Source: a virus. From it: a DNA stretch of 64,000 bases. A program made the position numbers and the translations under genes. The number at the start of each line of letters is the position of its first letter. Within the stretch, counting starts at the first letter, position 1. The notes beneath the pieces are model-generated. The model ran no database searches, was not told the origin of the DNA, and saw nothing but the letters and a program-made list of their open reading frames with translations. Where the stretch lies: IMG/VR virus record IMGVR_UViG_3300045971_000895, positions 128,001 to 192,000 of that record; one strand, given 5' to 3'. Positions 15,821-62,132 of the stretch are shown here, in pieces.

Positions 15821-15852
15821 AGCTGGTCGCCTTCGGAGCAGTCATGTAGCTT

Positions 15853-15890: not shown

Positions 15891-15907
15891 CAGCAGCAGG
15901 AGGTTTC

Positions 15908-16345: not shown

Positions 16346-16348
16346 ACC

Positions 16349-16711: not shown

Positions 16712-16714
16712 GCC

Positions 16715-17619: not shown

Positions 17620-17628
17620 GAGCACCAC

Positions 17629-17763
17629 ATGACCGTCAAGACCTTCGCCAACGTCGCAGACCTCCAGGCCTACATCACGGCCAACGTCATCACGCTCGCC
17701 AAGACCGTCGCCATCTACTTCGACGCGGCCAGCGGACACCACGTCCTCGTCCACACGCCGTAG
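17629..17763 (+). CDS. small protein (44 aa)
   Basis: 'MTVKTFANVADLQAYITANVITLAKTVAIYFDAASGHHVLVHTP' with AGGAG RBS. Too short for the ORF track. Confidence 0.3.
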   Translation: MTVKTFANVADLQAYITANVITLAKTVAIYFDAASGHHVLVHTP

Positions 17764-17799
17764 TTCCCACACCCTCCTCTACCCGGTAGGCTGGGAGCC

Positions 17800-18225
17800 A
17801 TGAACGTCGTGACCGTGCGCGCCTTCAGAGACGAGCTCACCAAGATCGCCGCAGCTGGCGGTCTCGCTGGTCTCAGCGCCAAGGCTCTCGGCGTCCTCAA
17901 GTCGAACCCCATGGCGGTGAGCGCCGCTCTCGGTGCTGCGACGTTTGTGGCGGCCCAGTACGCCGCCAACAGAGCCCCCAAGGACGGCGGCAAGTCGGGG
18001 CAGCAGAGGCTCTTCTCGAGGATCCAGGCCTCCTCTGAGCACGACGAGAAGCAGCGCAAGAAGGAAGGGAAGAAGCCTACCTTCGTGAGCGAGTCTCGTC
18101 GCATCCTCGCCAAGCCAATGAGTCAGCTTGCGACTCTCTCCACCAAGCATCCCCTTCCTGCGGCCCTTCCTGCGGCCGCCGTCGGCGCCAAGGTCGGCGT
18201 CGAGTTCGCCAAGCTGCTGTTCTAG
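17800..18225 (+). CDS. hypothetical protein (141 aa) with N-terminal 'FRDELTKIA' motif
   Basis: 'MNVVTVRAFRDELTKIAAAGG'. Confidence 0.45.
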   Translation: MNVVTVRAFRDELTKIAAAGGLAGLSAKALGVLKSNPMAVSAALGAATFVAAQYAANRAPKDGGKSGQQRLFSRIQASSEHDEKQRKKEGKKPTFVSESRRILAKPMSQLATLSTKHPLPAALPAAAVGAKVGVEFAKLLF

Positions 18226-18233
18226 GAGAAGAC

Positions 18234-35500: not shown

Positions 35501-35908
35501 AAGTTCACCAAGCGCCAGCTGAACGTGATGGCCGGTGGCGGCACCTACATCCTCGTCCAGGAGGTTCCGGGTGGCTCCGTCTTCTGCCGGCACCAGCTGT
35601 CGACCGACCTGACCAGCGTCGAGACCCGCGAGCTCTCCATCACCAAGGTGGTCGACTTCGCGGCCAAGATCCTGCGCATCGGTGTTCGCCGGTTCATCGG
35701 GACCAGCAACATCAACCCCCAGCTGCTCGACATGCTGGGCGCCACGGTGCACGCCATCCTGAAGTTCCTCGAGGACACCGGCGTCATCAACGGGTCGAAC
35801 ATCAACAACCTGGTCCAGGACAAGGCGAACCCGGACACCATCCTCGTCGACGTCACCCTGGACGTTCCGTACCCCTGCAACTACATCCGCCTCACCTTGA
35901 TGGTGTGA
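32570..35908 (+). CDS. tail sheath protein (1112 aa)
   Basis: The C-terminal region '...FIGTSNINPQLLDMLGATVHAILKFLEDTGVINGSNINNLV...VTLDVPYPCNYIRLTL' resembles the conserved sheath C-terminal domain. Gene order before the putative tube fits. GGAG RBS. Confidence 0.5.
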   Translation: MATGELLRPGVEVIQQIRKASPTVLRPTLVPCVVGTAFEVVNVLNSDGTINTKAKWGSYAQIAKAISESAFPDPRGNIAELDFLEDTVRPYLLHGGSLSYLPLTHGSAFLASLHKASKAAIQTDIFSGVSGKALNGLVLTLAIDLPAIADHSRDIAITFVGSGAGGTGVLTSQQCADQINTAVGEIVATVVGASPNDRVQIASPTYGALSSVTIRPGTANVPLKVAFLTTDGNYTERVEGAGLRGQDDLNNDTITPWVEFFQGEYYYGAASAAVAASYRAQVGAIDLETQVFAAAKAAAVTFSGGSPTVPLKVGDFVIADGVRLASGEVMKVETSRFKVGTINTLLSSADAQGNYTTKVYDTQQVGTAYDSTPFAPTYCYFVANDINWRLATGAMAATVTGTTVSFAAATAATVATVATPAGPYSLQGLGLHYTVTIDGVETEGTFTFTAASYADMDAVVAALGTNIPGVLATNAGGQLTLTSTKTGILQGITVWGNSTCRSVLLFASDVADVGSDTNYTGLTGKYLTFQFDSNPHTYQVLATSLSLEELVAEVNKTVGATVATISSGFITLTSPLKGIASRVTVLDTGSSKAEDILGLTAGNTNGTGRPYPDAYLDDSLVLHIGSEVLRDSVKGYPLDQAYDTGTLYVQYKALRKDVSAASAQPGVIRVSDTDTLLAVLDPVTEENPLALGMFLTMLNAPTFEVKGLGIDEVTAAAPEGTEVAWARAAALLETEEVYAIAPLTQNEVVQGMWMTHCSIMSAPEQGGERIVFPNKKMPTTKNPGIAASGSAANSTASPNQLVLDTNPSSGLVALGVNPALAFALSKGVYVEVTVASELRRYNVSSVSGSLVNLRTTFATGENTDAFYSDVFLNVPVVNSAYSLKVRGASLTIPGTNPALYDYSLMSETVAEANALYKNRRVYEVFPETVRLQVSGVEKALPGYYASCAIVGMVAAQPPQQGFTNFPIVGLTGVVGSEKFTKRQLNVMAGGGTYILVQEVPGGSVFCRHQLSTDLTSVETRELSITKVVDFAAKILRIGVRRFIGTSNINPQLLDMLGATVHAILKFLEDTGVINGSNINNLVQDKANPDTILVDVTLDVPYPCNYIRLTLMV

Positions 35909-41096: not shown

Positions 41097-42824
41097 TTAG
41101 CTCCTCAGGTAGTTGGTGAAGGAGGTCCTCACGAGATCGGTCATCTCGAAGAAGAGGTCCTCCGGGTTGTCTCCTACTCGAACCCAGCGCTTCGGGCCCA
41201 GCATCCTGTCCGCCTCTGACGACGGCAGGGTGTTGCCCAGCAGCACGGTACTGACTCGGATGCGCCGGCGAGCGGCATCGACCACGTCTTGTCTTACCTG
41301 CTCGCGCAGGCCGATGTTCGACTGAGCCCCGATGGTCTGCGGATTCCCGTCCGAGACGATGAGCAGGTGCTTCATCCGCCCAGGCATCTGGGCCAGCTGC
41401 CGTGCGGCGACAGGGACAGCGATGTGGAGCGGAGTGAGCCCCCACGCCTCGGGGATGGTCTTCTTCGGCAGGTAGCCCTTGGTCGGGTCCTCGAAGTCGA
41501 TGATGACCGTCCCTCCGGTGCTGTCTCCAGAGAAGCCCCAGACCTTCACATTCGAGAAGGGGAACTTGGTGGCCACCGCGGCCACTTTCGCCGCCCTCGA
41601 CACCGTCATCCAGAGCTGCTGCATGGAGCCGCTCATGTCGAGCAGGATGATGAGGTCGAAGCCCTTGGCTGGGCGGTCCTCGAGGAAGAACTCCATGTCG
41701 CCCTGACCGTGGAGGAACTCGATGTAGCGCTCGGGGTCGAGGTGAGATCCGTCTTCGGCCCTCGCACGGGTGCGCTGGTCGATGAGCCGGATGAAGATGC
41801 GGCGCAACTCCGAGGCAAGCTTGGAGTCCCTCTCGCTCAGCCTGAACTCCTCAGCATCGTGGGCAGGAACGTGAACGAGCTTCGTCCTGTGCATCCCCTT
41901 CAGGAGGTCTTGGTCCGGAGGGATCTCTCGCAGTCGGGAGGAGAGCTTGCGGATGAGCGTCTGCACTTCCTCCGTGCCCAAGCTGATGAGCTGAGCGAGT
42001 GCGTCATCCGACTCGAGACCCATCGCAGTGCGTGCGACGTGCTTGGTCTTCCCCGTGTCCCTGTCGAGCGCTCGAGGGGACTCGGTGTCGAACAGCATGG
42101 CTGCTCCCCGAGACTGAAGCGCTGCCTTCTCGAGCTGAACGACTGCTCGCTCGTTGCTGTAGATCTTCCTCTTCGTCATCCTCTTCGCGCCGCCGGCCTG
42201 CGGCACGCCAGGCTCTTGTGGCACCTCCTCATCTGCGAGGAGGCCGATGACGTGGTCGAGGATGATGCGAGTGGCCACGAGCACGGTGGGGTAGCTGGCA
42301 CGCTTCACCAGCTCGAGCGCACGCAAGATGACGGGGTCGAAGCGGTCCCAGCTGCTGCCAGGGATCTCGGCCGCACCGATGCCGAGGGCGATGACCCTCA
42401 TGGTCAGGTTGCCTTTCGTCCCGTTGGCGAGGAGCCGCTCCCACCGAGTCTTCAGCTTCTCGGCGCTGCCCGGGTACACCATCTCGTGGAGAGAGTGCAC
42501 GCGAACATCGTCGATCGCGTTCGCCAGCATGTCGATGAAGTCCTCTTGGAGGGAGGTGGGGGAGAGCCCAGTCAGCTTCCGCTCCTCGAGGTAGAGCTTC
42601 ACGAAGTGGGCTCGAGCATGGAGGTCGGTGCCGAAGAGGATGTGCGTCCACTCATGCTTGTGGATGACGTCCACCTCCTGGTCTTCGATGGGGACGGAGA
42701 GGTAGGTCTCGGTGTCCGTCCGACCAGGAGGATCAGCGGCGAAGAGGGTGATCTCCTTCCCCGTGAGGCCGCAGAAGATCTTGTGGACCTTCCGCACGAT
42801 GTCGACCCGGTCCTTGTGGTTCAT
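41097..42824 (-). CDS. VWA-domain protein (CobT-like partner of MoxR ATPase)
   Basis: MIDAS motif 'DLIILLDMSGSM' in the C-terminal half. 4-nt overlap with the upstream ATPase gene. Confidence 0.7.
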   Translation of the reverse strand: MNHKDRVDIVRKVHKIFCGLTGKEITLFAADPPGRTDTETYLSVPIEDQEVDVIHKHEWTHILFGTDLHARAHFVKLYLEERKLTGLSPTSLQEDFIDMLANAIDDVRVHSLHEMVYPGSAEKLKTRWERLLANGTKGNLTMRVIALGIGAAEIPGSSWDRFDPVILRALELVKRASYPTVLVATRIILDHVIGLLADEEVPQEPGVPQAGGAKRMTKRKIYSNERAVVQLEKAALQSRGAAMLFDTESPRALDRDTGKTKHVARTAMGLESDDALAQLISLGTEEVQTLIRKLSSRLREIPPDQDLLKGMHRTKLVHVPAHDAEEFRLSERDSKLASELRRIFIRLIDQRTRARAEDGSHLDPERYIEFLHGQGDMEFFLEDRPAKGFDLIILLDMSGSMQQLWMTVSRAAKVAAVATKFPFSNVKVWGFSGDSTGGTVIIDFEDPTKGYLPKKTIPEAWGLTPLHIAVPVAARQLAQMPGRMKHLLIVSDGNPQTIGAQSNIGLREQVRQDVVDAARRRIRVSTVLLGNTLPSSEADRMLGPKRWVRVGDNPEDLFFEMTDLVRTSFTNYLRS

Positions 42825-43777
42825 GTGAGCCCCGCTCGAGTGGCGAGGTCGGCATGGGTCCCGTTCTTGGTGATGTCCTGGATGCGCTCGATGACGAGCT
42901 TCCGGTCCTCGTCGCCAAACTTCTGGCAGAGGAGGAACATCATGTCGAACCAGCCGACGCGGGGGAGCAGGTTGATGAGCTCCACCAGGTCGCGGGTGGA
43001 GAGGGAGTAGCTGGTGGCTCCCTGCCTGGTCTGGTTGGCGATGTTCACCAGCATCTCCAGGCCCTGCTGCTGGATGGGGTCTCCCATCGAGCCCGTCTTC
43101 CCGTAGCCGGTCATCTCCATGAGGATCTCCTTCTCGGCCTCGGGAGGCGGGTAGGGGATGTCGATGCAGGTGAAGCGGCTCCTCAGGTCATCGTTCAGCT
43201 CGTTGGTTCCGCCGTAGACGGTGGGGTTCTGCGTGGCGATGACCCAGAGCTTGCAGCCCTCCCGGAGCTCGAGGCGCGTGGAGAGCTCTGGGATCTCCAG
43301 CTTGCGGCGGAAGTCGGTGAAGCTGTTCACCAGCTTCTGCTGCTGGTTGGGCAGCGAGTTCAGCTCCTCGAGCACGAGCATGGCGAAGCCGCACTCGTTG
43401 GCCACCTTGATGGCGTTGGCGACGGTGCCGAGGATGAAGGGGGTCTCCCCGCTCTTGGCGACGAAGCCTCCCTTGAAGTGCCGCTCCCTCGTCTCTTCCG
43501 AGCAGTCCATGGAGAGGTAGGGGATGCCGAGGGTCTCGGCCATGTACGACGCCAGCAGGGACTTCCCCGTCCCCTTGGGCCCGTTGAGCAGGAGGTTGGG
43601 AGGATCCCAGGTACCCGAACCGGTAGGCACCTGACTCATCTTTGTGAGGAAAGGTATGAGCTCGAAGACATCGACGTACTTCAAGCCCTTCCTCAAGACG
43701 AGAGAGGCGGGTACCATGTACCTGACCTCGACGCCGTTGATGCGGAGGATGCCCTCTCCGACTGCTTCAAGTGTCAT
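42821..43777 (-). CDS. MoxR/CobS-like AAA+ ATPase
   Basis: Walker A 'LLLNGPKGTGKS' and Walker B 'MLVLEELN'. Size and architecture match phage CobS-like proteins. Confidence 0.75.
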   Translation of the reverse strand: MTLEAVGEGILRINGVEVRYMVPASLVLRKGLKYVDVFELIPFLTKMSQVPTGSGTWDPPNLLLNGPKGTGKSLLASYMAETLGIPYLSMDCSEETRERHFKGGFVAKSGETPFILGTVANAIKVANECGFAMLVLEELNSLPNQQQKLVNSFTDFRRKLEIPELSTRLELREGCKLWVIATQNPTVYGGTNELNDDLRSRFTCIDIPYPPPEAEKEILMEMTGYGKTGSMGDPIQQQGLEMLVNIANQTRQGATSYSLSTRDLVELINLLPRVGWFDMMFLLCQKFGDEDRKLVIERIQDITKNGTHADLATRAGLT

Positions 43778-43845
43778 GTGTCCTCTGGTAGTGTAGGTTG
43801 TTGGCCTTCAAGGTCTTATCCCTTCAACGCGGACCCTTTGGACCG

Positions 43846-44169
43846 ATGCCCCAAGACCAAGAACTGACCATCGACAAGCTCTCCGCCGGCGACCGCCCTT
43901 CGATCCTTGCTCTTGGCGTGGCCGCGGCCGAGTCGTTGAAGCAGGCCAGCATCGCCGTCTTCATGGTGGACGTCTTGGGCCGCGTCCAGATCCTTCCGCC
44001 GAACTCGATCACCGTGAAGATCCCTGCTCGCGTGAAGACCGCTGAGCTGGATTCTCTCGACGAGGCCTCGGCCATCAACATCATGACTGCGCAGGGAGAC
44101 GGCGATGACTCCATAGTGGAGTACCTTCGCCACAGGGAGGGTCTGGGGGATGGCAACTCGAATCTGTGA
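43846..44169 (+). CDS. hypothetical protein (107 aa)
   Basis: Start 'MPQDQELTIDKLSAGD'. Divergent from the ATPase operon across a 70-bp intergenic region. Confidence 0.4.
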   Translation: MPQDQELTIDKLSAGDRPSILALGVAAAESLKQASIAVFMVDVLGRVQILPPNSITVKIPARVKTAELDSLDEASAINIMTAQGDGDDSIVEYLRHREGLGDGNSNL

Positions 44170-44407
44170 CACGGAGCCGTGCGACAAGATGAAGATGGCG
44201 TTGAGCCTCTTCTTCCGCACCGAGGCGTTGGAGAACTACAACCCCGAAGAGGGGCTGCTCGTCGCTCGGGTGGAGAAGAAGAAAGGGTTCGCCCCGGTCG
44301 ACCTCCACTTCAAGTACTGCCCCTTCTGCGGAACCAGAGCGGCCCTCGGCCTGGTGGATGGCCTCGAGGAAGAGTACGAGATGCGCGGGTCGAGGCAGCT
44401 GGCGTAG
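44150..44407 (+). CDS. zinc-ribbon protein (85 aa)
   Basis: 'CDTEPCDK...CPFCG'. Confidence 0.45.
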   Translation: MATRICDTEPCDKMKMALSLFFRTEALENYNPEEGLLVARVEKKKGFAPVDLHFKYCPFCGTRAALGLVDGLEEEYEMRGSRQLA

Positions 44408-44410
44408 CAG

Positions 44411-45088
44411 ATGCCTATCCCGGTCGCTCTCCCTGTCGGTGCGCTGGTCATCGACGACACGATCTCGGCAACAGCTGAGGCGTTCGTCGCTGCCATCGGT
44501 CAGGTCTTGCGGTCGGGAACGTCTGGGGCCACGCTCAACACCCCGCCCACTCTCTTCCCGGACGGAACCAACCCAGGCATCGACTCAGGCACGGGGCAGC
44601 CGTACCTCGCCTCGCTCGTCATCAGCACGCCCGAGCAGCAGCTCTTCTACCGGCAGCTGGGCGCGGCCATCGCATCGGCCATCGGTTCAGGCGGTGGAGG
44701 GCCAACACCTACTCCGACCGTCCAGCTCGTCCAGCTCGATGCGCTGTGCCCTTCGACGGTGGCGGTAGGCAACCTCGTTCGAGTGGCGAGCGCAGGTCAT
44801 GTCGACAAGACCGACATCACCGACATCACGAAGCTCCCCGCCATCGGAGTCGTGACCGCCAAGGCAACGACCACGAGCTGCACGGTGCAGACGCATGGCA
44901 TCGTCTCGGGGATCTTCACGGGCCTCACGCCTGGCCTGCTCTACTACGTGGCGCTCGACAGCACACTCGGGCCCATACCAGTTCCCACCACCGGTCAGGT
45001 TCTGTTCTGGCAGGCGGTGGGTGTCGCGCTCGATGCCACGAGCCTTGTGCTCTCACCGAGCTTCAGTCTCACCCGTATCGTAGGGTAA
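44411..45088 (+). CDS. hypothetical beta-rich protein (225 aa), possibly fibre-associated
   Basis: ORF. Gly/Thr-rich. Confidence 0.45.
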   Translation: MPIPVALPVGALVIDDTISATAEAFVAAIGQVLRSGTSGATLNTPPTLFPDGTNPGIDSGTGQPYLASLVISTPEQQLFYRQLGAAIASAIGSGGGGPTPTPTVQLVQLDALCPSTVAVGNLVRVASAGHVDKTDITDITKLPAIGVVTAKATTTSCTVQTHGIVSGIFTGLTPGLLYYVALDSTLGPIPVPTTGQVLFWQAVGVALDATSLVLSPSFSLTRIVG

Positions 45089-45153
45089 CATCCACGTTCC
45101 CACCCCCGCAGGGTGGGTGCTAACTTCAAACCACAACCGAGGAGCCAAGCACT

Positions 45154-45579
45154 ATGGCACGTAGAAACCTGAAGAGCGTCGAGCCCGAGACCGTGACCCC
45201 CGTCATCCCGAACGTGGCTCTTCCGCCTCCCCCGGCGGCCGGCACCGCTCTGGACGTCCTGAAGATCGACGAGCTGCGGCTGCTCAAGGTCACTCGCCTG
45301 ATGGAGAAGGAGCGGGCCGCCCGCTACGAGTCGATGGCGGCGGTCAGCGCGCTCAACGCGATGTTCCAGGAGTTCCTCTCCAAGGACCCGAAGGGGAAGG
45401 AGCTCAGCGACCGCGTCAACCAGCTCCAGGCAGAGGCGCAGAAGGCCAACAAGGAGTACCAGGCCATCGCGTTCGAGATCGGCAGAGACCTCAAGATCGA
45501 CATGCAGGAGTACGCCTTCGACGACGAGACCGGCGTGCTCCACAAGCTCCCGCCTGCGGCGGGGGCCACCAAGCCGTAG
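45154..45579 (+). CDS. hypothetical protein (141 aa)
   Basis: GAGGAG RBS. Low-GC promoter-like region upstream at 45089..45153. Confidence 0.5.
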   Translation: MARRNLKSVEPETVTPVIPNVALPPPPAAGTALDVLKIDELRLLKVTRLMEKERAARYESMAAVSALNAMFQEFLSKDPKGKELSDRVNQLQAEAQKANKEYQAIAFEIGRDLKIDMQEYAFDDETGVLHKLPPAAGATKP

Positions 45580-45597: not shown

Positions 45598-48500
45598 ATG
45601 GCCCTTCGCAGGTTCCTGTTCCAGAACCTCGGTGCGGGCTCTGGCTTCTTCGATCAGAACCAGGACTCGGACGAGGTACAGGTAGCGAGGGTCACCATCG
45701 TCGCCGGCGTAGGCGGCGTTGGTCTCGCTCTTGGCCTGACCGACATCTCTGGGGCTCGGGACATCAGCGCCCGGTTCGTCTCGTTCACCACCGGCGTCAC
45801 CGGTGGCGTGGCGATCGACGCCGGCGGCCTGCGCATCACCAACCTGGCGCTCGTTCCCACCGGGCCCAGCGAAGCCGTCTCGATGCAGTTCGTCGTGGAC
45901 GCCATCGCTGGGATGACCGGCGTTGGCGCCACAGGAGCCACAGGCCCTGCTGGCCAGCAGGGACCAACCGGTGCCGCGATCACCGGGGCCACTGGCCCGC
46001 AGGGCTCGCCCGGGCCCACAGGGCAGCAAGGTCTTCAGGGCGTCACTGGAGCAACTGGGCCTGTCGGTCCGCAAGGCCCTACCGGAGCGGCGATCACAGG
46101 GGTCGCTGGGCCGCAAGGGGCAACAGGTGTCACGGGAGCCCGAGGTGCTGACGGCGTCACTGGGGCGACGGGCCCTCAAGGGCCGCAGGGGGTCACGGGA
46201 TTCACCGGTCCCCTTGGTCCTCAAGGCGTCGATGGCGTCACTGGTCCGCAGGGTCCGACTGGAGCTGGCAGCTATCCCGGTGGCACGACGGGGCAGCTGC
46301 AATACTTCAACGCCGGGTCCTTCGGTGGCGCTACCAACATTACTTTTGAGAACGGGTCGCTTGTTCTCAAAGCAGATGGTGTCCACCCAATACTGGTCAT
46401 CAAGAACTCTTCTGGCGTAACCGTTGGTGGATGGGATGCCTCCGCAGGGCATCTATCCACCACCTTCCTAGATCCTGTTGCATCGCTGCGTACAGGCCAT
46501 GATGGCTACTTCGAGCAGGGAGGTTTCTTCTTCGACTCTTCCCTTACGGCGACTACCGGAATAGCTGCTGACGTTCTTGTTCTGGATACGGCAGCTGCGC
46601 TTAGAACCAAGAAGGCTACGACCGCTCTTGAGATCCCCTTGGGGGTTGCGGGGCAGTTCAACGCGCCTACTTGGATGCTCACTAGCGGTAAGGCTAGCGT
46701 TACTGCGGATACTGCCGCAGTGGCCATTGGTGACCGTATCGTGATGTCCCCCACGCTGATTGGGGCCGTCACTCCCGACAACACATGGGACCTTGCGAAG
46801 CCCATGCTTGGGTACGCGCTGTCGAGCAAGGCAGGAGGGTCCAGCGGGGCAATCACTATATGGCTGGCCCAGCAAGCGGGGATACCGTCTCTCAACTACT
46901 CCGGCACGCTTGTCTCAACAAACAACATCACCGCACCAACGTTCCTCGGCAACGTGACGGGTACCGGGCCATCTTCCCTGGGGCCTTTGAGTGTCACTGG
47001 AGCAGCTACCGCAGATCAGCCTACGTTTGGCCCCGAGCTGCTCAGCGCAACAGGCTGGACTTCGGTCGGATGGACTGGCGGGCCTTGGCCTACTGGGTTC
47101 GCACACACCGCCGGCAACACTTCCGTTCTCTCCAACACCTTGGCTGCCGTCATCGGCACCAAGTACCACATCACGTTTGCCGTTACGGGGCGTACGGTCG
47201 GAACGTTCGACTTGCAGTTCGGTGGCCAGACCATCCCACTGCTGTTCTCTTCCACCACGGTCAACCTCGGGGACGCGAACGGCTACGGCAGCGTGGACCC
47301 TACCGCCACGACGACCGGTGGCCTGACGATCACTCCGACAACGGACTTCAACGGGACGATCACCCTCTCGATCAAAGCCATCACGGCCGTCTCTACTCCT
47401 GTGTTCAAGCTCCTCTCCAGCACGTGGGGAGTCCAAGTAGAGGTCCGCGTCAACACGGTAGAGAGCGGCACTAACATCGCAAGCATGTTCATCGGCCAGG
47501 ACTCTGGCTCCTATGCGACTACCGGGTTCAACAATACGTTCCTCGGTAACGCTGCGGGCATGAACCTGACGTCAGGCCATGACAACTGCGGCCAAGGCAA
47601 CCTGGCCCTCAAGGCTCTCACGGTTGGGTTCGGCAACTCGGCCTTTGGGTCTTACGCTCTTCGGCAGATCATCGCGTCCAAGTACAACACGGCGATGGGC
47701 ACCGGGGCTTTGCGGTTGCTCACCTCGGGCTACGGCAACACGGGCGTTGGGTTCAGTGCCCTCTACTCCAACACCACGAGCATCTACAGCTCTGCCCTCG
47801 GCGTAAGTTCCGGACGCTACTTGGTTGATGGCATCACCGAGCTTACTGACTCTTCCTACTCGGTGTTCCTGGGCTACAAGTCGATGTCGTTTGCCCAGGC
47901 ACAGACCAACGAGATCGTCATCGGAGCCTTGGCTCTTGGCAACGGCTCCAACACGGCCACGCTCGGTAACGACAGCGTCACCAAGACCTACCTCAAGGGC
48001 GTGCTCACGAGCTTGGTTGTTGATAGCGCCGCAGCGGTGGCTCATGCCATCAACTCCCCAGCCTACAGCACGGCCGGCGCCAAGCTCCTCTCGATCCGCA
48101 ACAACGGCGTCGAGAAGTTCTACGTCGACAAAGATGGCAACGCCTACTCGAACGGAGTGCTGCTCGGTGCCACGGGCCCAGCTGGAGCGACAGGAGCTCA
48201 GGGCGTTACTGGAGCACAAGGGATCCAAGGTGTCACCGGTGCAACTGGTCCGACTGGTCCACAAGGAGCCACTGGGCCGTTGGGTGCCACTGGCGTTCAA
48301 GGCATCCAGGGAGTCACTGGGTCGACAGGCCCTGCCGGCGCGCAAGGTGCCACGGGTCTTCAAGGCATTCAGGGTGTCACGGGAGCGACCGGGCCTACGG
48401 GCCCGAAGGGCGACACCGGCGCTGCGATCACTGGAGCGCAGGGCGCAACTGGTGTGCAGGGTCCGCAGGGCATCACCGGCGTCACAGGACCGATGGGACC

Positions 48501-51500
48501 TGGGAGTCCCTCCGCTGGCCCTCAGGGCAGCCCAGGCGTCACTGGTGCGACGGGTGCTCAGGGTCCACAAGGAGTAACGGGGGCAACAGGTCCCACTGGG
48601 CCTCAGGGCCCAACTGGCGCCGCCATCACTGGCGCTCAGGGTCTTCCCGGTGTCACCGGTGCTACGGGCACAACCGGAGCGCGAGGCGCGACCGGTGTCG
48701 ATGGTGTCACCGGCGCCACAGGTGTTCGCGGTGCCACTGGTGTGGACGGTGTGACCGGCGCGACGGGTCCTACGGGGGCTCGAGGTGCGACAGGCATCGA
48801 CGGAGTCACCGGGGCTACTGGCCCTCGTGGTGCAACCGGAGTCGATGGAGTCACAGGAGTCACGGGACCAACCGGCGCACGAGGTGCGACTGGCGTTCAA
48901 GGAGTCACTGGGGCTACTGGTCCTCAAGGGGCCACAGGCGTCGACGGCGTTACCGGATCAACGGGACCTCGAGGTGCGACCGGAGTGACTGGTGCGACAG
49001 GTCCTGTCGGTCCTCAAGGGCCTACGGGAGCGGCCATCACCGGCGCCATCGGGCCGCAGGGCCCGACAGGTGTGACCGGTGCTCGCGGCGCTGACGGCGT
49101 CACTGGCGCAACAGGTCCGACAGGGCCACAGGGTGTGCAGGGTCCTACTGGTGCGGCCATCACAGGAGCGCAAGGAATCCCCGGCACGACCGGAGCTACT
49201 GGCACAACTGGTGCGAGAGGCGCGACTGGCGTCGACGGTGTCACTGGTGCCACGGGGCCGACCGGACCGGTCGGTGCTCAGGGCGTGACGGGAGCTACCG
49301 GCCCAACAGGCGCACGGGGAGCGACGGGTGTTGATGGTGTGACGGGCTCGACAGGTCCTCGTGGCGCCACCGGCGTTGACGGAGTGACCGGAGCAACAGG
49401 CCCCACTGGTGCACGCGGGGCGACAGGCGTCGATGGAGTCACTGGGGTCACAGGCCCAACCGGTGCCCGCGGTGCAACGGGTATCACCGGTGCCACTGGT
49501 CCCATCGGCCCGCAGGGTGTGACTGGTGCGACTGGCCCGGTTGGCCCACAGGGGGCGACGGGCGCCACTGGTCCTGTTGGTCCGCAAGGCCCCACTGGTG
49601 CGGCGATCACTGGGGCTCAAGGCATCCAAGGGCCAACGGGTGCTGCGATCACGGGTGCGGTTGGTCCGCAAGGTGTCACCGGCGCTACTGGTGTGACTGG
49701 TGCTCGAGGTGCTGATGGCGTGACTGGTGTCACCGGCCCCGCCGGCGCCAGGGGCGCGACAGGCGTTGATGGTGTCACCGGCGTTACAGGTCCGACCGGA
49801 GCGCAAGGTGCCACTGGGCCTGGTGCGAACCCTGGCGGCATCACCGGCCAGATCCAGTTCAACGAAGGCCCGACCTTCAACGGCGACGTCGGCCTCACCT
49901 ACGACAAGGTGTCGAAGGCTCTCTTCGTCAGCACCATTGACGCTCTCCCCAACAACCCTCTCAGCCTGTTTGGGAGTGCGACGGCCGGAGCGACGAGCGG
50001 CGCCATCATCCTCACGCAGACCCCGGGCCTTACGGTCCCCGGGTCCAGGCTCTTCAGCCTCCGCAACAACAGCGCTGAGAGGTTCTACGTAGACGAAAGC
50101 GGCAGAACCTACGCAGCCGGCATGGAGGTATTCAAAACCAACGACGTGGTGATGAACACCAACCCGTTCGGTGGACGCAAGCTCTACCTCAACAGCATCA
50201 ACAATGCGCTCTTCCGTGCCGAGAGCCGCTGGGCCGTTACTGGGGCTCGGTACCTGACGAGCGACGACAGCCTTCTGTCTGCCATCTCGCAGGTGGAGCT
50301 CGCCACGCTCTTCGATGGCAACTACGAGGCGGTACTCAACATCCCCGCCGGCCAGTACATCATCGTCAACATCAACTTCGCCACCGAGCTCGGCTCCGGT
50401 GGCGTCTACCCCGGGTACCCGTACGGCAACTTCCTCGTCTCGCACTACTACACTGACTACTCTGCCGGGGGCACGGTCAGCGCGTACTCAACCTACGTGC
50501 CCCATGGCGTTGGGTGGCACTCGCAGACGTTCTACGACTACCTCCGAGTCGGCACCACCAACCTGATCCTTCAGGCGCGGAACGACGTCTACGCGATCTC
50601 TCAGCTGGAGTTCAAGTTCTCGGCGCTGCCAGGCACTGCGGCCAAAATCACCCAGATTGACTGGAACCTCGATCGCCCTGGCGGTAACGAGATGCCGCTG
50701 TTGGATAAGTTCAAGGCCAACATCCTGTACTCTCACTTGTCGTTTGAGAGCGGGCTTTCGACGACTGCTGTGATTTCGGTTGCCGGTGAGGGCCGCTTTG
50801 CTGCGCTGTACGGCGTCACTGGGTCGTTGCCGCTGCACGGTCAGGCCGTAGACGGAAGCTCTGCTGTTGGGGTGAGCGTCAACAACACGACTGCGCTCAC
50901 CACGGCTGGTGCGAAGCTCTTGTCTGTCCGCAACAACTACGTCGAGAAGTTCTACGTCGACAAGGATGGCAACTTCGGAGGCCCGAACGGCGTCTTCCGC
51001 GTTACGGAGACGCGCACTCTCCCGATCACTGTCGGGGACTATGTTTCGCTCGGCTCCGTTCAGGTCCCAAGCGGCGCACACCAGCTGATTGTTCAGCTTA
51101 CCGTGTCGAGCTCCGGGTTCTCCGTCGCGAAGCTCTACTTCGTCACTGCTGCCTACGGCCAGACGGGGAACGTTTGGAAGACTGTCGATCCCGTCGACGA
51201 CACGGGCCCGTTCTCGAACGACTTCGCGTTGGAGGTCAACACAGTCAACGCCTCACTCTTCCTGCGGGTGCGCCGTACTTCGGGAGCCGTTGCTGGAGTC
51301 GTCACGGCAGTCATGACGATCGGCGACTCCAACGTCGCTAGTTGGTTTACCGACTCCTCGACCGGGGGCACTGGGTCGGTGGCGACGGGCTACTTCGCCG
51401 GCGTTGCCTCCAAGATCCTGCGGAGCGGTCTTGCGGACTCAGGTTCGGCGGTCGCTGCGCTCATCGACACCACGGCGACGTTCACCACAGCTGGTGCGAA

Positions 51501-54500
51501 GCTCCTCTCCATCAGGAACGCGGGCATCGAGAAGGCCTACGTCGACAAGGACGGCAACTACTGGTCAAACGGCCAACAGATCAGCGTCACTGGCCCCACT
51601 GGCCCTCAGGGCGCCACCGGGGTCAACGGCGTCACTGGAGCAACTGGCCCAACAGGGCCTCAAGGCATCCAAGGCGTCACGGGAGTCACCGGTCCAACTG
51701 GTGCGCGTGGTGCTACCGGAGTTGATGGCGTCACCGGAGTGACTGGGCCTACCGGTGCACGAGGCGCCACTGGTGTTGATGGTGTCACGGGAGCAACCGG
51801 GCCAACAGGTGCTCGCGGCGCAACTGGTGTCACCGGAGCAACTGGCCCTGTTGGGCCGCAAGGAGTGACGGGCGCTACTGGCCCCGTCGGACCGCAGGGA
51901 CCTACCGGGGCAGCCATCACTGGAGCACAGGGCATCCAAGGTCCTACCGGAGCCGCCATCACTGGTGCTGTCGGGCCCCAAGGGCCTACCGGCGTCACGG
52001 GTGCGCGCGGTGCGGATGGTGTGACCGGGGCCACTGGGCCGACAGGTCCGGTTGGCGCACAAGGTGCGACAGGGTGGACAGGCCCCACCGGGGCGAGGGG
52101 TGCCACCGGTGTGGACGGCGTCACCGGCGTCACGGGCCCGACTGGCGCCCGCGGCGCCACCGGGGTCACCGGTGCCCAAGGCATCCAGGGCATCCAAGGC
52201 GTCACCGGGTCGACCGGCCCGCAGGGCGGGCAGGGCCTCCAGGGCGTCACTGGGGCCACGGGACCGACCGGACCCCAGGGCGCGCAAGGGGTGACAGGCG
52301 CAACGGGCCCCACGGGCCCGCAGGGCGCTCAGGGAGTGACCGGCTGGACCGGCCCGACGGGCGCCAGGGGCGCCACGGGCGTGGACGGTGTCACAGGTGT
52401 GACCGGACCCACCGGGGCCCGTGGTGCGACCGGCGTGACGGGTGCGCAGGGCATCCAAGGGAACCCCGGTGTCACCGGTGCGACAGGTCCTCAAGGCGCT
52501 CAGGGACCGACTGGTGCAGCCATCACTGGGCCGCAGGGTGTCACAGGAGCCACAGGGCCTGTCGGTTCACAGGGCCCGACAGGAGCTCTCGGCCCCACGG
52601 GAGCAGGCAGCTTCCCTGGAGGCGCGAACACTCAGGTCCAGTTCAACAACTCCGGCGCGTTCGGTGGATCTGCGAGCCTGTTCTGGAACGGCACCTCTCT
52701 CGTCGTAGGCACCTCTGCGGCAGGCTCCAGCCAGCTCTCAAGCGCCAACGCCTTCCAAGAGTACTGGTCTACGGAAGTGTACCCTCGCGTGTGGCTCTCC
52801 CGCGATGCAGGGTCGAGCGGCGTGGCCGGTCTGGCGTTCGGCATTGGCTCCGTTGCCCCGGACAGCAAGATCCATCGAGCCACCAACGGTGCTGGCCTCG
52901 CCTTGATGGGCGGCAACGTCGGCATCGGCACGACGACCCCTGGGTACAAGCTCGATGTGGCGGGTAACGCCAACATCAGCAACGGATCTTACTACTACGC
53001 TGGAGGCTTGCCGCTTTCGGCCGGCGCTGGTGCAGAAAACTACCTGTTCACCAGAACCAACGGCCTGCTGATCCGCAACGCAGGTGAGACCGCGACCCTT
53101 GGTGTCATCGACAACAGCGGTAATGCGTCGTTCATAGGGACGCTCTCCACAGGAGGCAACGCAGTCATTCATGCCGGTAACATCGGCACCCAGAGCGTCG
53201 CTAACGCAAACACTGTCGACTCGGTCCATTCGTCATCGCTCCGTCGTCTGGACTCGGACGGCTTCTTCTCTACCGGGACCTACCCAGGCAACCTGAACGG
53301 CTCTGACTACCAGTACACGTTCCAGTCTGCGCCACAGTCGATGATCGGGGATGCCTTCGCCTGGAACCCTCCCACGTCCTACGAGATATGGAATGGGTCT
53401 GCGTGGGTGTCCGGTGGCGCCGTACCAGTCGAGGTGTTCCGGGGAGACCCCGCCCAGAACTGGGGCAACGTATCCATCCCCTACGGGACGCAGAAGGTCC
53501 GCTTCACGTGGAACAACTTCGAGTACTTCTACTGGAACGCTCTCCAGATGGCCCACTCCACCAATGGGCACACCTTTGTCGTGAAGGTGCAGCAGAGCGA
53601 CGCAGCGGGAACGACGTTCACTGACACGGTCACCTCGGCCGCCATCGGCTCTTGGCCCGGGTATACGATCCTCCCTCACACGGGCGTTTCGCACCCCTCC
53701 AACACACTTCACGCTCGGATCGAGATCACCCCGACGTGGAATGGTACCTACCCTTCCAACACCATCGGCATCGGGCACATCGGCCTGCTGGGCGCGTATG
53801 GCCCGATGAGGAAGCTCTACACTTGGGACGCAGCTCGAAACATCTATCTCCAATCAAGCCTTGTCATCGACCCCACCGGCACCAGCGGCATCTACATCAA
53901 CTCCGCTAGCATCCGGCGGTCAGGGAACTCGTACCTCGATATCTCTGCCCCAGACGCTGGAGGACGCCTTAGACTTCGTGGCGCTTCAGGCGTTGGCATA
54001 TACAACGGCACAAACGACTACGATGTAATCCACGCGGGCAACATCGCGTCGCAGACCGTCGCCAGTGCCACCAACGTGACGTCAGTCGCTGACACTACGA
54101 CGACCAGTGGATTCTTACTCTTCCACCCCGGGAGCGGGACCTACCAGCCCAGACTGAGCGCGGCGCTATACTACGACGCTACTACTGGGTCTCTGTTCTC
54201 TACGAAGTTCTTCGGGAACGCTTCCGGGCTTACGGGTTCGGCGGGCAGTCTAACTGCCGGCGCGACCACGAATGTAACCGCTGGTGGGTCCGTCACCACT
54301 ACCACCATAAGCGCCCTGGTCGCGGGTGGAGCCTTAGACCCGTACGGCGCAGTCGCCATCGCGGCACCCAACGACGCTACCAGCCACTCCTACATGTCGT
54401 TCACTAGGAACGCGCAGGTAGGTATTGGGTTTGGTATCACGAGCTCAAATGAGTACTGGGTTGGGCCAGCCACGGCGGGCTTCGCCGGGGTGATGAGTGG

Positions 54501-55209
54501 TACGCCCTGGCTGCGTCTGAACGGCACTACTGCCCAGATCAACGGCAATAACATCATTCACGCCGGAAACATCGCCTCTCAGACCGCGGGTACCGCTACC
54601 AACGCCGTCAACGTTGGGGTCACCGACGACACGACGACCAACGCTACTCACTACATAACGTTCGTGAACACGGCCTCGGGCAACCGTGCGATCGAGGTCA
54701 GCAGCAGCAAGCTGACGTACAACCCGTCGACCGGTGGTCTCACCACCGCCGGCAACATCACCGGCAGCGACATCTATGCCATCCGTGCGAGCAATACGGC
54801 TTCAGGCGTCATCTACTTCGGCAACAGCGGCGCCCAGTACCTCTTCTACAACGGTGCTGGCGCATACAGCCTGACAAGCGGAACTCTGACCGTTGGTGGC
54901 ATCGTCTACGCCACCGACTTCTCGGCATCTTCCGACTACAGGCTGAAGGACAACATCGCCACCATCCCCAACGCGCTGCGCCGTGTTCTTGGGATGCGCG
55001 GAGTGAACTTCACACGCGCTGACGACGAGAGTAACCGTTTGCACATGGGCGTCATCGCGCAAGAGATGGAAGAGATCGCACCCGAGGTCGTCAGCACCGA
55101 CGAGCATGGTATGAAGTCCGTCAGCTACACAGGGCTGGTGGGCATCCTGATCGAAGCGGTCAAGGAACTTCAAACCAAGGTCGAGGCGCTCCAAGCGCAG
55201 AAGGTGTGA
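45598..55209 (+). CDS. giant collagen-like tail fibre (3203 aa) with C-terminal peptidase S74 intramolecular-chaperone domain
   Basis: Three Gly-X-Y segments (about 110, 550 and 340 aa) separated by beta-rich modules. The C-terminus '[55 protein letters not shown]...[17 protein letters not shown]' matches the auto-cleaving chaperone domain of endosialidase-type fibres. Confidence 0.82.
48170..49830 (+). repeat. collagen-like GXY coding repeat (9-nt periodicity, 'GgtGcgACnGGn' units)
   Basis: Hundreds of near-identical '[13 protein letters not shown]' triplets. Shorter copies at 45920..46270 and 51590..52610. Confidence 0.85.
51590..52610 (+). repeat. collagen-like GXY coding repeat (third segment)
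   Basis: Same unit as above. Prone to recombination and length variation. Confidence 0.85.
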
Positions 55210-55210
55210 C

Positions 55211-56338
55211 ATGAGCGGCAAGCGCGAGTTCCACATGGACTTGAACTTGACCAACCAGTGCAACCTTCGCTGCTCCTACTGCGTTGAGGCTGGGCTGTTC
55301 ACCTCCAAGACCTGCGAGGAGATGCTCCCTCGCTTCTACGCTTGGATCGACCGGTTCATCGGCTCCCAGTACTTCAAGGAGCGCTACGACGAGCTCCACA
55401 TCGCACTGTGGGGCGGAGAGCCGACGCTCGAGTGGCGAACCATCATCGAGTTGGTGCGGCGCTACCTCGGAGACAACCGGGTCGCGTTCTTCCTGTACAC
55501 GAACGGCTACAACCACCCCAAGGGTCTTCAAGACCTTCTGGTGGACGCCACCAACAAGCACCGAGAGCAGCCCGACAAGTACCCAGCCTTCCCCATCCAG
55601 ATCTCGTACGACGGCATGCCCCTACAAGACATGTTCCGCAAGACGGTCGGAGGCAAGCCGTCTTCGGAGCGCGTCATCGAGACCATCCGGTGGGCGCAGG
55701 CCAAGGGATTGGACTTCAGCCTCAAGGCCACGATCACCGTGGCGTCATTGAAGCACCTCTACGCAGCCTGGCATGACATCAACATCCTTGGCCGAGGCGA
55801 GCTCACTTACTTCCCCACACTCGACTACTACAACGCGGTGATCAGCGACGATACGGCTGTCCTCGACACCAGCATCGAGGAGATGAAGACCTGCATGAAG
55901 ATGATCGCCGCCGACACGCTCAGGGCTCGAGCGGCAGGGAAGCAGGTGGCGCACTTCAGGTGGTTCGACTCTGCGAAGGCCAGCTGCTCGGCGGGACAGA
56001 ACCTGTTCAGCGTGGACCTCGATGGTGTGGTGTACGCCTGTCACACCGCCCCCTACTCCGAGAAGAAGGCCGACCATGTCGTTGGGGCTCTGGAGGACGA
56101 CTTCTCGATCTTCGACGTATCTGCTGAGAAGCATCGCGGCCTCCGTCCGCACCAGTGCTCTGGCTGCGAGGCGGTCTTCTGCGTGGTGTGCAGCGTGTCG
56201 AAGTATCGGATGTCGGACAAGGACAACTACCTCGACCGGTGGATGGACTACACCAACGACGATGAGTCCTGCCGCATCTACCGAGAGATGGGCAAAGTCA
56301 CTCGTGCGTTCCTTCAGCTCAAGGAGGAGATCAAGTGA
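55211..56338 (+). CDS. radical SAM enzyme with C-terminal SPASM/twitch-like Cys cluster (peptide/protein-modifying maturase)
   Basis: 'CNLRCSYC' is CxxxCxxC 18 residues from the N-terminus. The C-terminal cluster is 'YACH...QCSGCEAVFCVVCSV...ESC'. The start is 2 nt after the fibre stop. Confidence 0.8.
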   Translation: MSGKREFHMDLNLTNQCNLRCSYCVEAGLFTSKTCEEMLPRFYAWIDRFIGSQYFKERYDELHIALWGGEPTLEWRTIIELVRRYLGDNRVAFFLYTNGYNHPKGLQDLLVDATNKHREQPDKYPAFPIQISYDGMPLQDMFRKTVGGKPSSERVIETIRWAQAKGLDFSLKATITVASLKHLYAAWHDINILGRGELTYFPTLDYYNAVISDDTAVLDTSIEEMKTCMKMIAADTLRARAAGKQVAHFRWFDSAKASCSAGQNLFSVDLDGVVYACHTAPYSEKKADHVVGALEDDFSIFDVSAEKHRGLRPHQCSGCEAVFCVVCSVSKYRMSDKDNYLDRWMDYTNDDESCRIYREMGKVTRAFLQLKEEIK

Positions 56339-57003: not shown

Positions 57004-57678
57004 ATGGCGATCATCCCATCGTTGCCGCCCATCGTCCTCAGAGGCTCGACCAGCATCGCCACCAATGCGGTGAGCGTGAACATCTACGGCACGCCAACTA
57101 ACCTGACCCTCACCGCGACCATCGTTCGTACGCTCTTCGCCAAGCTGACTGGGACGATCAATCTCTTGGATGGAAGGGGTAAGTGCTACTCCAACTGCCT
57201 GTGCAACGGCGATTGCGGCTGCGACGCCAACTGCGGCTGCGACGCCAACCTGTGCGGCTGCGACGCGTTCTGCCCGGCTCCTGATGTCCCACTGCGTATG
57301 GCGGATGGGACCGAGAAGCTCGCTGGCGACATCGTGGTCGGAGACCTGGTGGTGGCTTGGGATGAGCACGCAGGAGAGTTCTCTACTCGCAAGGTCATCC
57401 ACGCATCACTCCACTCCAACCTCCGAATGCTCCTCGAGCTCAACAACGGGAAGTCCGGAGAGTTCGCAGCCAACCACAGGTTCCTCACGCAGAAGGGCCG
57501 TTGGGTCGAGCTTCAAGATCTCCATGTTGGTGAGAGGCTCTCGACGGGGCTGCTGGTCACCAAGACGGCGCTCACCTGCATCGGCCCCGTCGTGTCCATC
57601 ACCGTCGAGGACCTGCACACCTACGTCACCCTCGGCGTCATCTCTCACAACGTCAAGAACTGTCCGCCAGGAGTCTAG
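57004..57678 (+). CDS. Cys-rich (CxC-repeat) peptide fused to Hint/intein-like (BIL-type) autoprocessing domain
   Basis: Residues ~60-90 are 'CYSNCLCNGDCGCDANCGCDANLCGCDAFC'. Hint block A is 'CPAPDVPLRMADGTEKLAGDIVVGDLVV'. Block B is 'ANHRFLTQKGRWVELQDLHVGERL' (compare 'TANHRFLT' in the DnaB mini-intein). The C-terminal block is 'VEDLHTYVTLGVISHN', followed by 'VKNCPPGV' with no Cys/Ser/Thr at +1. Confidence 0.75.
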   Translation: MAIIPSLPPIVLRGSTSIATNAVSVNIYGTPTNLTLTATIVRTLFAKLTGTINLLDGRGKCYSNCLCNGDCGCDANCGCDANLCGCDAFCPAPDVPLRMADGTEKLAGDIVVGDLVVAWDEHAGEFSTRKVIHASLHSNLRMLLELNNGKSGEFAANHRFLTQKGRWVELQDLHVGERLSTGLLVTKTALTCIGPVVSITVEDLHTYVTLGVISHNVKNCPPGV

Positions 57679-61163: not shown

Positions 61164-62132
61164 GTGCAACAAGCAGTGAACTTCACCGCTACATCCTTAT
61201 GCCCAAATCGCACTCGTACTTGCTACCACATCCACCGCACTCTTCATGCTCCCCACCGCAGACTCAGGAGAGTAGCGTGGAGGTACGTGACCACCTACCC
61301 AGTACCTCCAGGCACTTCCAGGCGCGTTCCGCGTTACGTGACGTTGCTTCTTTGTTGGTTGGGGGTCGCGATATGTGGAGGGCTGGATGGTTGGCTCGAC
61401 ATGGCCTTCCACTACAACTTCACACCAACACCGATCTACCTAATTCCCATCTCGGTGGCAGCGTGGCTTGGAGGAATCCCTCTTGGCCTTCTCGTCGCTG
61501 CTCCTGCCTTGGCACTCGAGGTGTGGTTCAGTGTCGACGCAGTCAAGGTGCACCACTCCAACGGTGTAGTCATCACAGAGGCACTCTCGCTACTCATCGC
61601 CGCAGAGATGCTGACGGGTGTGCTCATCATCTCGAGACTGCGCGGCTACGTTCGCAAGTACCACCACTTCGCTTCGGTGGACGAGCTCACGGAGTGCCTC
61701 AACGCCAGAGCATTCAAGCACGAGTGTGAGATCTCCATCGAGCGCCTGAAGCGCCACAGCAACACGCACCTCTCAGTGATGTACATCGACGTGGATGACT
61801 TCAAGCTCGTGAACGACGAGAAGGGTCACAAGCATGGCGATGAAGCGCTCAAGATACTCGGCCAAGCACTTCGAGACTCGGTGCGCGTGGTGGATGTGGT
61901 TGGAAGAGTGGGAGGAGATGAGTTCGCCATTCTCTTGCCAGAGGCTAGTGAGAGCGATCTCCCATGTATCATCGAGCGCATCAAAGCTGCACTCGTGCAG
62001 ATGCAGTTCCCCACCACCATCAGCATCGGCTACGTGACCTACCCGCCCGGTGTGCCGAAGGATCTCGACGAGGTCTTCCACACGGCCGACCGGCGCATGT
62101 ACGAAGCCAAGAAGGCACGCAAGAAGAGGTAA
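61164..62132 (+). CDS. membrane-anchored GGDEF diguanylate cyclase
   Basis: 'RVGGDEFAILLP' active-site motif and 'MYIDVDDFKLVNDEKGHKHGD'. Hydrophobic N-terminal segments. The true start is probably downstream, around 61338..61400. A hairpin follows at 62137..62160. Confidence 0.68.
   Translation: MQQAVNFTATSLCPNRTRTCYHIHRTLHAPHRRLRRVAWRYVTTYPVPPGTSRRVPRYVTLLLCWLGVAICGGLDGWLDMAFHYNFTPTPIYLIPISVAAWLGGIPLGLLVAAPALALEVWFSVDAVKVHHSNGVVITEALSLLIAAEMLTGVLIISRLRGYVRKYHHFASVDELTECLNARAFKHECEISIERLKRHSNTHLSVMYIDVDDFKLVNDEKGHKHGDEALKILGQALRDSVRVVDVVGRVGGDEFAILLPEASESDLPCIIERIKAALVQMQFPTTISIGYVTYPPGVPKDLDEVFHTADRRMYEAKKARKKR

Follow-up and report, generated by a model that had tools for sequence, protein, structure and literature searches.

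The stretch analyzed here (the window) comprises 64,000 nucleotides of a virus record, IMGVR_UViG_3300045971_000895 (positions 128,001 to 192,000), and the element under study is a 9.6-kb fiber gene on its plus strand. A single open reading frame (ORF), 45598..55209, was recovered from the ORF listing and translates into 3,203 amino acids (aa) plus a stop codon; it is preceded by the Shine-Dalgarno sequence AAGGAG and begins with MALRRF, a start that is kept in the orthologs of related phages (L002, L003 and L004). An earlier sequence-only reading had described one fiber with three collagen segments, in which Gly-X-Y stretches alternate with beta-rich ones, and the domain map bears this out: three Gly-X-Y blocks lie in one ORF, separated by beta-rich segments. 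What that reading observed is partly confirmed, as the anatomy is real but its "near-identical 9-nt DNA repeats" are not, and what it concluded is partly supported, as the fiber and its peptidase S74 end stand whereas collagen-specific knots and phase variation do not. The protein is an ordinary kind in extreme form, a new extreme example of a known design. The domain map, homologies, catalytic dyad, DNA statistics and comparative lengths given below were all computed directly. The parts of the gene are as follows (module, a unit of ~55 aa related to the phage hyaluronidase HylP; QFN element, a short motif that follows collagen).

45598..55209 (+): fiber gene, 3,203 aa plus stop codon (ORF call, AAGGAG, conserved start)
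45598..45924 (+): N-terminal anchor domain, aa 1-109, presumed virion attachment (inside a DNA block shared with relatives)
45925..46269 (+): collagen block 1, aa 110-224, ~33 nm, two GAAITG breaks (Gly-X-Y runs, Pfam Collagen)
46276..46329 (+): post-collagen QFN element 1, starting at aa 227 (motif, self-BLAST)
46330..48000 (+): beta-rich non-collagen region, aa 245-801, the last ~180 aa with GN.A.G-type repeats
48001..48165 (+): module 1, aa 802-856, HylP-type, directly before collagen block 2 (weak Pfam Hyaluronidase_1 match)
48166..49824 (+): collagen block 2, aa 857-1409, ~158 nm, six GAAITG breaks and one GPGSPSAG break (Gly-X-Y runs)
49831..49884 (+): post-collagen QFN element 2, starting at aa 1412 (motif, self-BLAST)
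49966..50130 (+): module 2, aa 1457-1511, the most divergent copy (motif, self-BLAST)
50131..50832 (+): central globular bead, aa 1512-1745, beta-sandwich like CBM32 / F5-8 type C, putatively glycan-binding (predicted model)
50833..50997 (+): module 3, aa 1746-1800 (Pfam Hyaluronidase_1, alignment to HylP in the PDB, AlphaFold 2, Foldseek)
50998..51417 (+): second bead, aa 1801-1940 (parts of the proteins P0012, P0023 and P0079 share 41-45% identity with it)
51418..51582 (+): module 4, aa 1941-1995, directly before collagen block 3 (motif, self-BLAST)
51592..52608 (+): collagen block 3, aa 1999-2337, ~97 nm, three GAAITG breaks (Gly-X-Y runs)
52615..52668 (+): post-collagen QFN element 3, starting at aa 2340 (motif, self-BLAST)
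52669..54930 (+): distal region, aa 2358-3111, presumed receptor-binding end, three VIHAGNI.SQ repeats (sequence)
54931..55206 (+): Peptidase_S74 intramolecular chaperone, aa 3112-3203 (Pfam, alignment to solved chaperones)

Pfam Collagen (PF01391) matches the fiber in 10 stretches (2e-124). Including breaks, the three blocks total 1,007 aa, within which thirteen perfect Gly-X-Y runs of 6-62 triplets account for 957 aa; at 0.286 nm per residue, the extended collagen would measure ~290 nm (33 + 158 + 97 nm). Judging from the sequence and from the trimeric folds that flank them, the three segments probably form a trimeric triple helix. Eleven of the twelve interruptions are identical, a four-residue "G4G" break that reads G-A-A-I-T-G (aa 125, 163, 941, 1007, 1144, 1185, 1334, 1348, 2104, 2118 and 2306). 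The same break occurs three times in gene 2 of L004, 13 times in a collagen gene of the contig L009 and not at all in L003; it may have a conserved role as a hinge or a site of recognition.

A C-terminal S74 chaperone, as claimed from the sequence, was identified by Pfam Peptidase_S74 (PF13884), which covers aa 3112-3165 of the 3203 (E 1.7e-14; score 54.3 bits, cut-off 22). The domain aligns to S16 gp37 (6f45) and T5 pb1 (8hqz), with a match to SSDRRIKKDI, and to 8jov, and the sequence also shows the Ser/Lys dyad in S3112-D-Y-R-L-K3117, with the lysine five residues after the serine as in S911/K916 of endoNF (PMC8326128). Thus both the C-terminal place and the Ser...Lys(+5) dyad are those of the S74 chaperones of endosialidases, T5 pb1 and S16 gp37. 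The domain would trimerize, template folding of the distal end and then cleave itself off; cleavage just before Ser3112 is predicted to free 92 aa. In contrast to those proteins, the region that would be chaperoned here (aa ~2358-3111) has no solved relative. Within this distal region, V/I-I-H-A-G-N-I-(G/A)-(T/S)-Q recurs with similar flanks at aa ~2525, 2812 and 2988 (nt ~53170, 54031 and 54559) and may mark domain boundaries.

Most non-collagen pieces gave no informative match in PHROG and Pfam scans, and PDB sequence searches with aa 225-801 and 2338-3111 returned none. The region aa 245-801 is ~56% identical to part of the ortholog P0021 and has no Pfam or PDB sequence match; only its aa ~620-800 match PHROG families, of virion structural and tail spike proteins. 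The second bead has no PHROG match. The anchor (aa 1-109) is 67-75% identical in amino acids to L004 gene 1 and the L002 fiber, and no match to it was found in PHROG, in Pfam or by word-index search.

The fiber is, with good probability, a long virion fiber of a large, uncultured phage built as a trimeric beads-on-a-string adhesin from generic fiber modules, rather than a slippage hotspot. An N-terminal anchor of ~100 aa would attach it to the particle, and the three collagen rods (~33, 158 and 97 nm) would serve as long spacers. Between the rods, beta-structured segments would carry globular beads, at least one of them CBM32-like and putatively glycan-binding; each non-collagen segment appears to open with a generic QFN start element, and a segment that precedes a rod would close with a HylP-type unit of ~55 aa. 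There is precedent for an architecture of collagen linkers, ~60-aa three-stranded junctions and carbohydrate-binding modules (CBMs) in the Tal extensions of Streptococcus thermophilus phages, where the collagen-like linkers vary in length (PMC9437275). The likeness lies in the design logic, with linkers, three-stranded ("3-beta") junctions and putative carbohydrate-binding beads on one trimeric protein. It is architectural only, as Tal extends from a gp27-like domain of siphophages, whereas no gp27-like Tal N-terminal domain was found by PHROG or Pfam in the first 109 aa, and no sequence relationship was found; the collagen of the fiber is also far longer, and an S74 domain stands at its end. 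Trimerizing domains flank phage collagen in the enterohemorrhagic Escherichia coli (EHEC) prophage proteins EPclA-D, in which collagen is capped by non-collagen trimerization domains, has conserved interruptions and varies in length by multiples of three residues (PMC3368898). The EPcl proteins measure 400-670 aa, and their flanks PfN, PCoil, Pf2 and PfC (PF08400, PF03406, PF06820) were not detected in the fiber. The fiber represents an extreme case of collagen linkers, trimeric junctions, putative glycan-binding beads and a predicted self-cleaving chaperone.

Relatives and the place of the fiber on the particle

Megablast of the fiber gene against 50,697 phage records gave no match, and an exact-sequence look-up of the whole protein found none on record. 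Its C-terminal 1,829 aa correspond to a recorded protein, P0051 of the contig L001, which carries the same fiber gene and is 100% identical to the window over 15.3 kb. The possibility that L001 has a frameshift or indel ahead of P0051 was rejected; since L001 is identical to the window, the split call is a gene-calling artifact. With the segment aa 1410-1998, neither tblastn against phages nor scans of viral, metagenome and genome contigs found relatives.

Across three related phages synteny is kept and the fibers differ. The window phage has one gene of 3,203 aa with 1,007 aa of collagen and 4 modules; in L002/L003, a single gene of 1,949 aa carries 66 aa of collagen and 9 modules; and L004 has an anchor gene of 643 aa (gene 1, 10449-12380) followed by a gene of 2,026 aa (gene 2, 12403-18483) that holds S74, 9 modules and ~255 aa of collagen. 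Fiber length is thus far from invariant among related genomes. The split in L004 implies that in this phage the distal protein docks non-covalently. The DNA identity of the flanks (79-90%) stops at fiber aa ~100-125 (window ~45895-45971), and the anchor is the only fiber part inside the block common to the relatives. Length and composition would evolve through replacement of entire cassettes beyond the anchor, together with rare indels of nearly always whole Gly-X-Y triplets. The locus offers a three-way example of fiber length change: beyond a constant anchor, cassettes have been exchanged, divided over two genes or modified by indels, nearly all of them of whole triplets.

The L004 phage also has a second collagen gene (L009:2887-6714, IMGVR_UViG_3300045747_000694), a separate ORF of ~1,276 aa, of which ~990 aa are collagen, with a non-collagen C-terminus of ~200 aa and no S74.

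Where on the particle the anchor would sit is the point at which an alternative fares best. The L004 anchor gene, which has no collagen, module or S74 and shares the N-terminal anchor of the fiber, matches PHROG 2647 "head decoration" at 6e-35, so attachment of the fiber to the head or neck is conceivable. It would then be a decoration or whisker, still a trimeric collagen fiber and not a tail fiber. Consistent with this, a minus-strand cluster stands between the gene and the main structural block, and of the non-collagen pieces only the C-terminus matches tail-annotated families. However, genes annotated as tail fibers in 768 phage records match the S74 end together with the ~100 aa before it, as does phrog_5668 "tail fiber protein". 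HylP, the solved homolog of the module, is likewise described as a tail-fiber protein in PDB titles, and we infer that the PHROG label may reflect shared generic domains rather than a demonstrated head location. Attachment to the head or neck is considered unlikely, at roughly one chance in several, and a place on the tail is favored.

Modules and QFN elements at the collagen ends

A module of ~25 aa had been reported to recur about four times. All four quoted strings are present, at aa ~830, 1485, 1774 and 1969, and the copies are mutually similar (self-BLAST E-values of 4e-17 and 4e-6); the true unit is, however, longer, ~55 aa, with an upstream part (D.SAV......TT) and a pattern that includes L.G..ADG.SAVGV..DN and ...EKAYVDKDG. 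In aa 1410-1998, Pfam Hyaluronidase_1 (PF07212) scores 37.1 bits against a cut-off of 27, with module 3 as the best stretch, but the match covers only model positions ~119-160 of 161. In the PDB, phmmer matched only phage hyaluronidases of family PL16 (2wb3, 6wv2 and 6x3m), as did a module profile (E 0.0013-0.023), the aligned part being residues ~250-320, the C-terminal end of the central helix in the solved chains. AlphaFold 2 models one module as a beta-hairpin (KLLSVRN / VEKFYVD) with a short third strand (predicted local distance difference test, pLDDT, 79.6), and the best 22 Foldseek matches of this model are all PL16 hyaluronidases. By sequence comparison, the counterpart of the module in HylP is the terminal part of the triple-stranded beta-helix, to which it is homologous and which is an obligately trimeric fold (reviews).

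HylP and HylP1-3 (PL16; 2C3F, 2DP5, 2WB3, 2WH7, 6WV2, 6X3M) are hyaluronate lyases of streptococcal phages, trimeric fiber proteins built on this helix, and the fiber module corresponds to its last ~45 residues both by sequence and by predicted structure. This one segment is all that they share: the fiber lacks the HylP1 catalytic region and the remainder of the Pfam model, and uses the unit structurally, four times, in a protein about ten times longer.

To assess how widely the module occurs, 1.84 billion representatives of clusters at 50% identity were searched with a profile of 26 copies (A1). At least 2,102 cluster representatives matched at E<=1e-3 and 1,057 at 1e-10; individual proteins carry as many as 17 copies. 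Among the best 151 module proteins (644 copies), the modal spacing is 60-80 aa, collagen occurs in 5, and a single copy abuts collagen; a homology search with aa 1410-1998 likewise found proteins that carry 2-9 copies without collagen. These data mark the module as a general shaft unit of trimeric fibers and not as a lyase or a knot specific to collagen; it belongs to a large repeat family that lacks its own Pfam model and is seen only by the tail end of the HylP model. A dedicated model would improve the annotation of many phage and bacterial fiber proteins. Module proteins (P0004, P0006-P0009, P0011, P0013-P0157) were also seen to combine the unit with pectate-lyase-like, SASA esterase and K1-lyase C-terminal domains.

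The second junction element, a motif given earlier as PGG-TGQ-QFN-G-FGG and said to follow each collagen segment, was seen after all three blocks: PGG..GQ.QFN..G.FGG begins three residues past each block end (aa 227, 1412 and 2340). The same spacing holds for the main collagen blocks of the L003 and L004 orthologs. The same element is also found in collagen-free Synechococcus phage fibers (49-62% identity to QFN element 3, over 32-41 aa, at aa 22-135), near the N-terminus of those proteins; a word-index search with an alignment of the element, which is too short for this purpose, gave one marginal match. The element behaves like a generic opening element of a fiber segment.

The sequence-only reading took both elements for trimer-registration or nucleation knots flanking the collagen, and a strict version of this would have them as dedicated devices, co-evolved with the collagen and required for its folding. 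Part of the proposal survives, as the elements do sit at collagen ends and the module belongs to a family with a trimeric fold, so that it could hold the chains in register. The constant QFN spacing, the two modules that end 1-3 residues before a collagen block and the N-terminal collagen-like stretch of HylP itself (reviews) would all fit a dedicated role. Specificity for collagen is what fails: 146 of the 151 best module proteins have no collagen, modules 2 and 3 do not adjoin collagen (module 2 starts ~48 aa past the end of block 2), block 1 has no module in front of it, and the QFN element occurs in cyanophage fibers devoid of collagen. Dedicated knots are thus rather improbable, somewhat more so than attachment to the head. 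In the favored adhesin of generic modules, the module, an intertwined trimer in HylP, and the QFN element would bracket the rods and probably fix the chain register, but as a by-product of general fiber modules and not as a dedicated collagen device.

Several observations weigh against the favored reading. The list of the best 150 module proteins is biased toward those with many copies, so the collagen-adjacent fraction may be underestimated, and the two of four fiber modules that abut collagen within 1-3 residues exceed the family-wide rate. Taken alone, the Foldseek E-values of the module (0.2-2) are not significant. The CBM32-like bead (aa 1512-1745), a putative glycan binder, comes from a model built on six sequences with a mean pLDDT of 56.7 (core 70-90) and has no sequence-level family match. 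The head-decoration match of the L004 anchor gene, discussed above, counts here as well. Finally, we infer the trimeric state, the clamping of register, glycan binding, self-cleavage and the position on the virion, on the tail and not the head, where the anatomy itself was computed.

That the modules confer hyaluronidase or polysaccharide-lyase activity, which would make the fiber a depolymerase, is very improbable: the Hyaluronidase_1 match does exceed its gathering score, and the proposed catalytic Tyr264 of HylP2 falls inside the module-aligned stretch, but the matched positions are confined to the C-terminal end of the helix, a whole-domain match including the catalytic part of the beta-helix is absent, the proposed catalytic Asp137 and Tyr149 of HylP1 (reviews) lie outside the aligned residues, and repetition up to 17 times in other proteins is the behavior of a structural repeat.

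Collagen repeats in protein and DNA

Near-identical 9-nt DNA repeats had been proposed to make the gene a hotspot for length variation and thus to give phase-variable fiber length, i.e., frequent, reversible switching by slipped-strand mispairing or unequal recombination. The DNA is not of this kind. Tandem Repeats Finder detected only degenerate arrays in the gene (periods of 27-99 nt, 62-78% matches), perfect 9-nt periodicity in the collagen DNA extends over 8-9 nt at most, and no neighboring 9-mers are identical. Exact direct repeats reach at most 24 nt in the gene as a whole, within a module, and 20 nt in the collagen, and the collagen repeat spectrum equals that of a control in which the protein was kept and synonymous codons were redrawn. 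At the protein level, 271 pairs of identical peptides of at least 10 aa were found, the longest 41 aa, whereas the DNA of the longest pairs is only 70-83% identical; codon identity at identical residues is 0.302 against a random expectation of 0.314. Without near-identical tandem DNA repeats, the premise for slippage and phase variation is false. Intragenic gene conversion was also considered as a source of the codon differences and set aside, as there are no long identical tracts (maximum 20 nt).

The collagen does differ in length among relatives, and in a manner that slippage could produce. Global alignment of block 3 with the L004 block gives indels of 3, 9, 9, 9 and 90 aa, and local alignment gives one 1-aa gap, so almost every difference is a multiple of 3 aa (9 nt) and keeps the Gly-X-Y register, as had been anticipated; EHEC prophage collagen fibers likewise vary by multiples of three residues (PMC3368898). 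The changes are ancient, however, and accompanied by cassette exchange. The 90-aa insertion, absent from L004, is bounded by two copies of the same 41-aa peptide, yet these copies share at most 8 nt of exact match in register and have a codon identity of 0.28-0.30. Synonymous saturation of the DNA around the collagen-block indels points to slow evolutionary change and not to reversible slippage. L001 is identical to the window across all of block 3, although it may not be an independent record, and the other relatives are too diverged to test for copy-number change between very close relatives. Reversible switching is accordingly highly unlikely; instead, the alignments indicate that fiber length varies by cassette exchange and ancient indels of nearly always whole Gly-X-Y triplets. 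As a caution, slippage hotspots should not be inferred from protein repeats alone.

Codon usage in the collagen is also distinct. GC content at third codon positions (GC3) is 0.565 in collagen, 0.766 in the rest of the fiber gene and 0.858 in 20 other genes, and per-amino-acid tests confirm the shift for Gly (p = 4e-16), Thr (4e-25) and Gln (2e-12), with a Gln CAA fraction of 0.46 in collagen against 0.11 elsewhere. The same flattening is present in L004 (0.657 vs 0.858) and L003 (0.591 vs 0.744), such that collagen GC3 is 0.57-0.66 across three phages, compared with 0.86-0.93 in other genes. With genome-typical codons, the collagen would contain 48 +/- 11 exact repeats of at least 15 nt and 7.2 of at least 20 nt, whereas 10 and 1 were observed, 4-7 times fewer. 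Randomized synonymous codons between repeats, together with this flattened usage, would thus remove long DNA repeats.

The encoded peptide, in turn, is strongly conserved. A core of collagen block 3 is 97% identical in amino acids to L004 gene 2 over 171 aa while codon identity is at the random level, and block-wide comparison with L004 gives a proportion of nonsynonymous differences (pN) of 0.057 and of synonymous differences (pS) of 0.73. In the same deeply diverged distal block, pN against L004 is much higher for the adjacent radical SAM gene (0.285) and for the fiber tip with S74 (0.247). Non-orthologous collagen blocks of the GAAITG-interrupted family are ~77% identical. An overlapping antisense gene was rejected as the cause of the conservation, as saturated synonymous sites imply that no second reading frame is constrained in the collagen. 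Either the collagen is held by unusually strong constraint or it is a cassette with a separate, younger history in which synonymous sites have still become saturated.

One extension, which we regard as doubtful, would have the rods be sequence-specific functional elements, with selection at the DNA level against recombinogenic repeats and strong selection on each X/Y residue. The rods might, for example, be laterally bound or post-translationally modified, possibly by the adjacent radical SAM/SPASM maturase-like protein. Repetitive protein encoded by synonymously diversified DNA without long repeats is otherwise familiar from synthetic codon-scrambled genes, in which diversification serves to prevent deletion and recombination (PMC4403262, PMC12365220). 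In the fiber, by contrast, it is a natural state that may reflect selection against repeats or age combined with relaxed codon bias. With its repetitive protein, non-repetitive DNA, flattened codons and conserved peptide, the collagen would be a natural counterpart of engineered codon scrambling.

Genomic context

The window encodes a terminase large subunit (TerL), a head maturation protease and a major head protein at 4151-15820, which identifies the source as a phage; TerL is at most 29% identical to that of any sequenced phage. Related contigs measure 153 and 196 kb, so the source is probably a jumbo phage. Two large ORFs on the plus strand of the structural block, 21826-27219 (1,797 aa) and 32570-35908 (1,112 aa), have no Pfam or PHROG match. 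The minus-strand cluster in front of the fiber includes a CobS/CobT-like pair at 41097-43777 (an AAA_5 ATPase of 318 aa and a VWA_CoxE protein of 575 aa), which is 93-96% identical in amino acids in L004 and 80-88% in L002. The genes on either side of the fiber are the following.

43798..45579 (+): four small conserved genes of 123, 85, 225 and 141 aa, upstream of the fiber and syntenic in all relatives
55211..56338 (+): radical SAM/SPASM maturase-like gene, starting 2 nt past the fiber stop codon (Pfam Radical_SAM)

None of the four small genes matches a Pfam, PHROG or NCBIfam family. For the radical SAM/SPASM gene, the best NCBIfam matches are the PapB, anSME, QhpD and SCIFF maturases, all far below equivalog cut-offs, and a viral contig scan with its protein found no relatives. 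An ortholog (56% identity) follows the collagen-rich gene 2 of L004, and none follows the collagen-poor fiber of L002/L003; the link of the gene to the fiber is one of association. As the fiber has a single Cys (aa 664), Cys-based thioether chemistry on it is unlikely.

Three further observations concern the remainder of the window. ARAGORN called a 92-nt tRNA-Arg(TCT) at 15243-15334 (-), inside the opposite-strand ORF of the major head protein (14699-15820), which is probably a false positive. An ORF of 224 aa at 57004-57678 (+) has weak Hint/intein-like matches (intein C-terminal splicing region; models of intein-containing radical SAM and helicase proteins). At ~61400-62132 (+), corresponding to an L001 gene (13018-13749), lies a GGDEF (diguanylate cyclase) Pfam domain, an unusual cargo for a phage.

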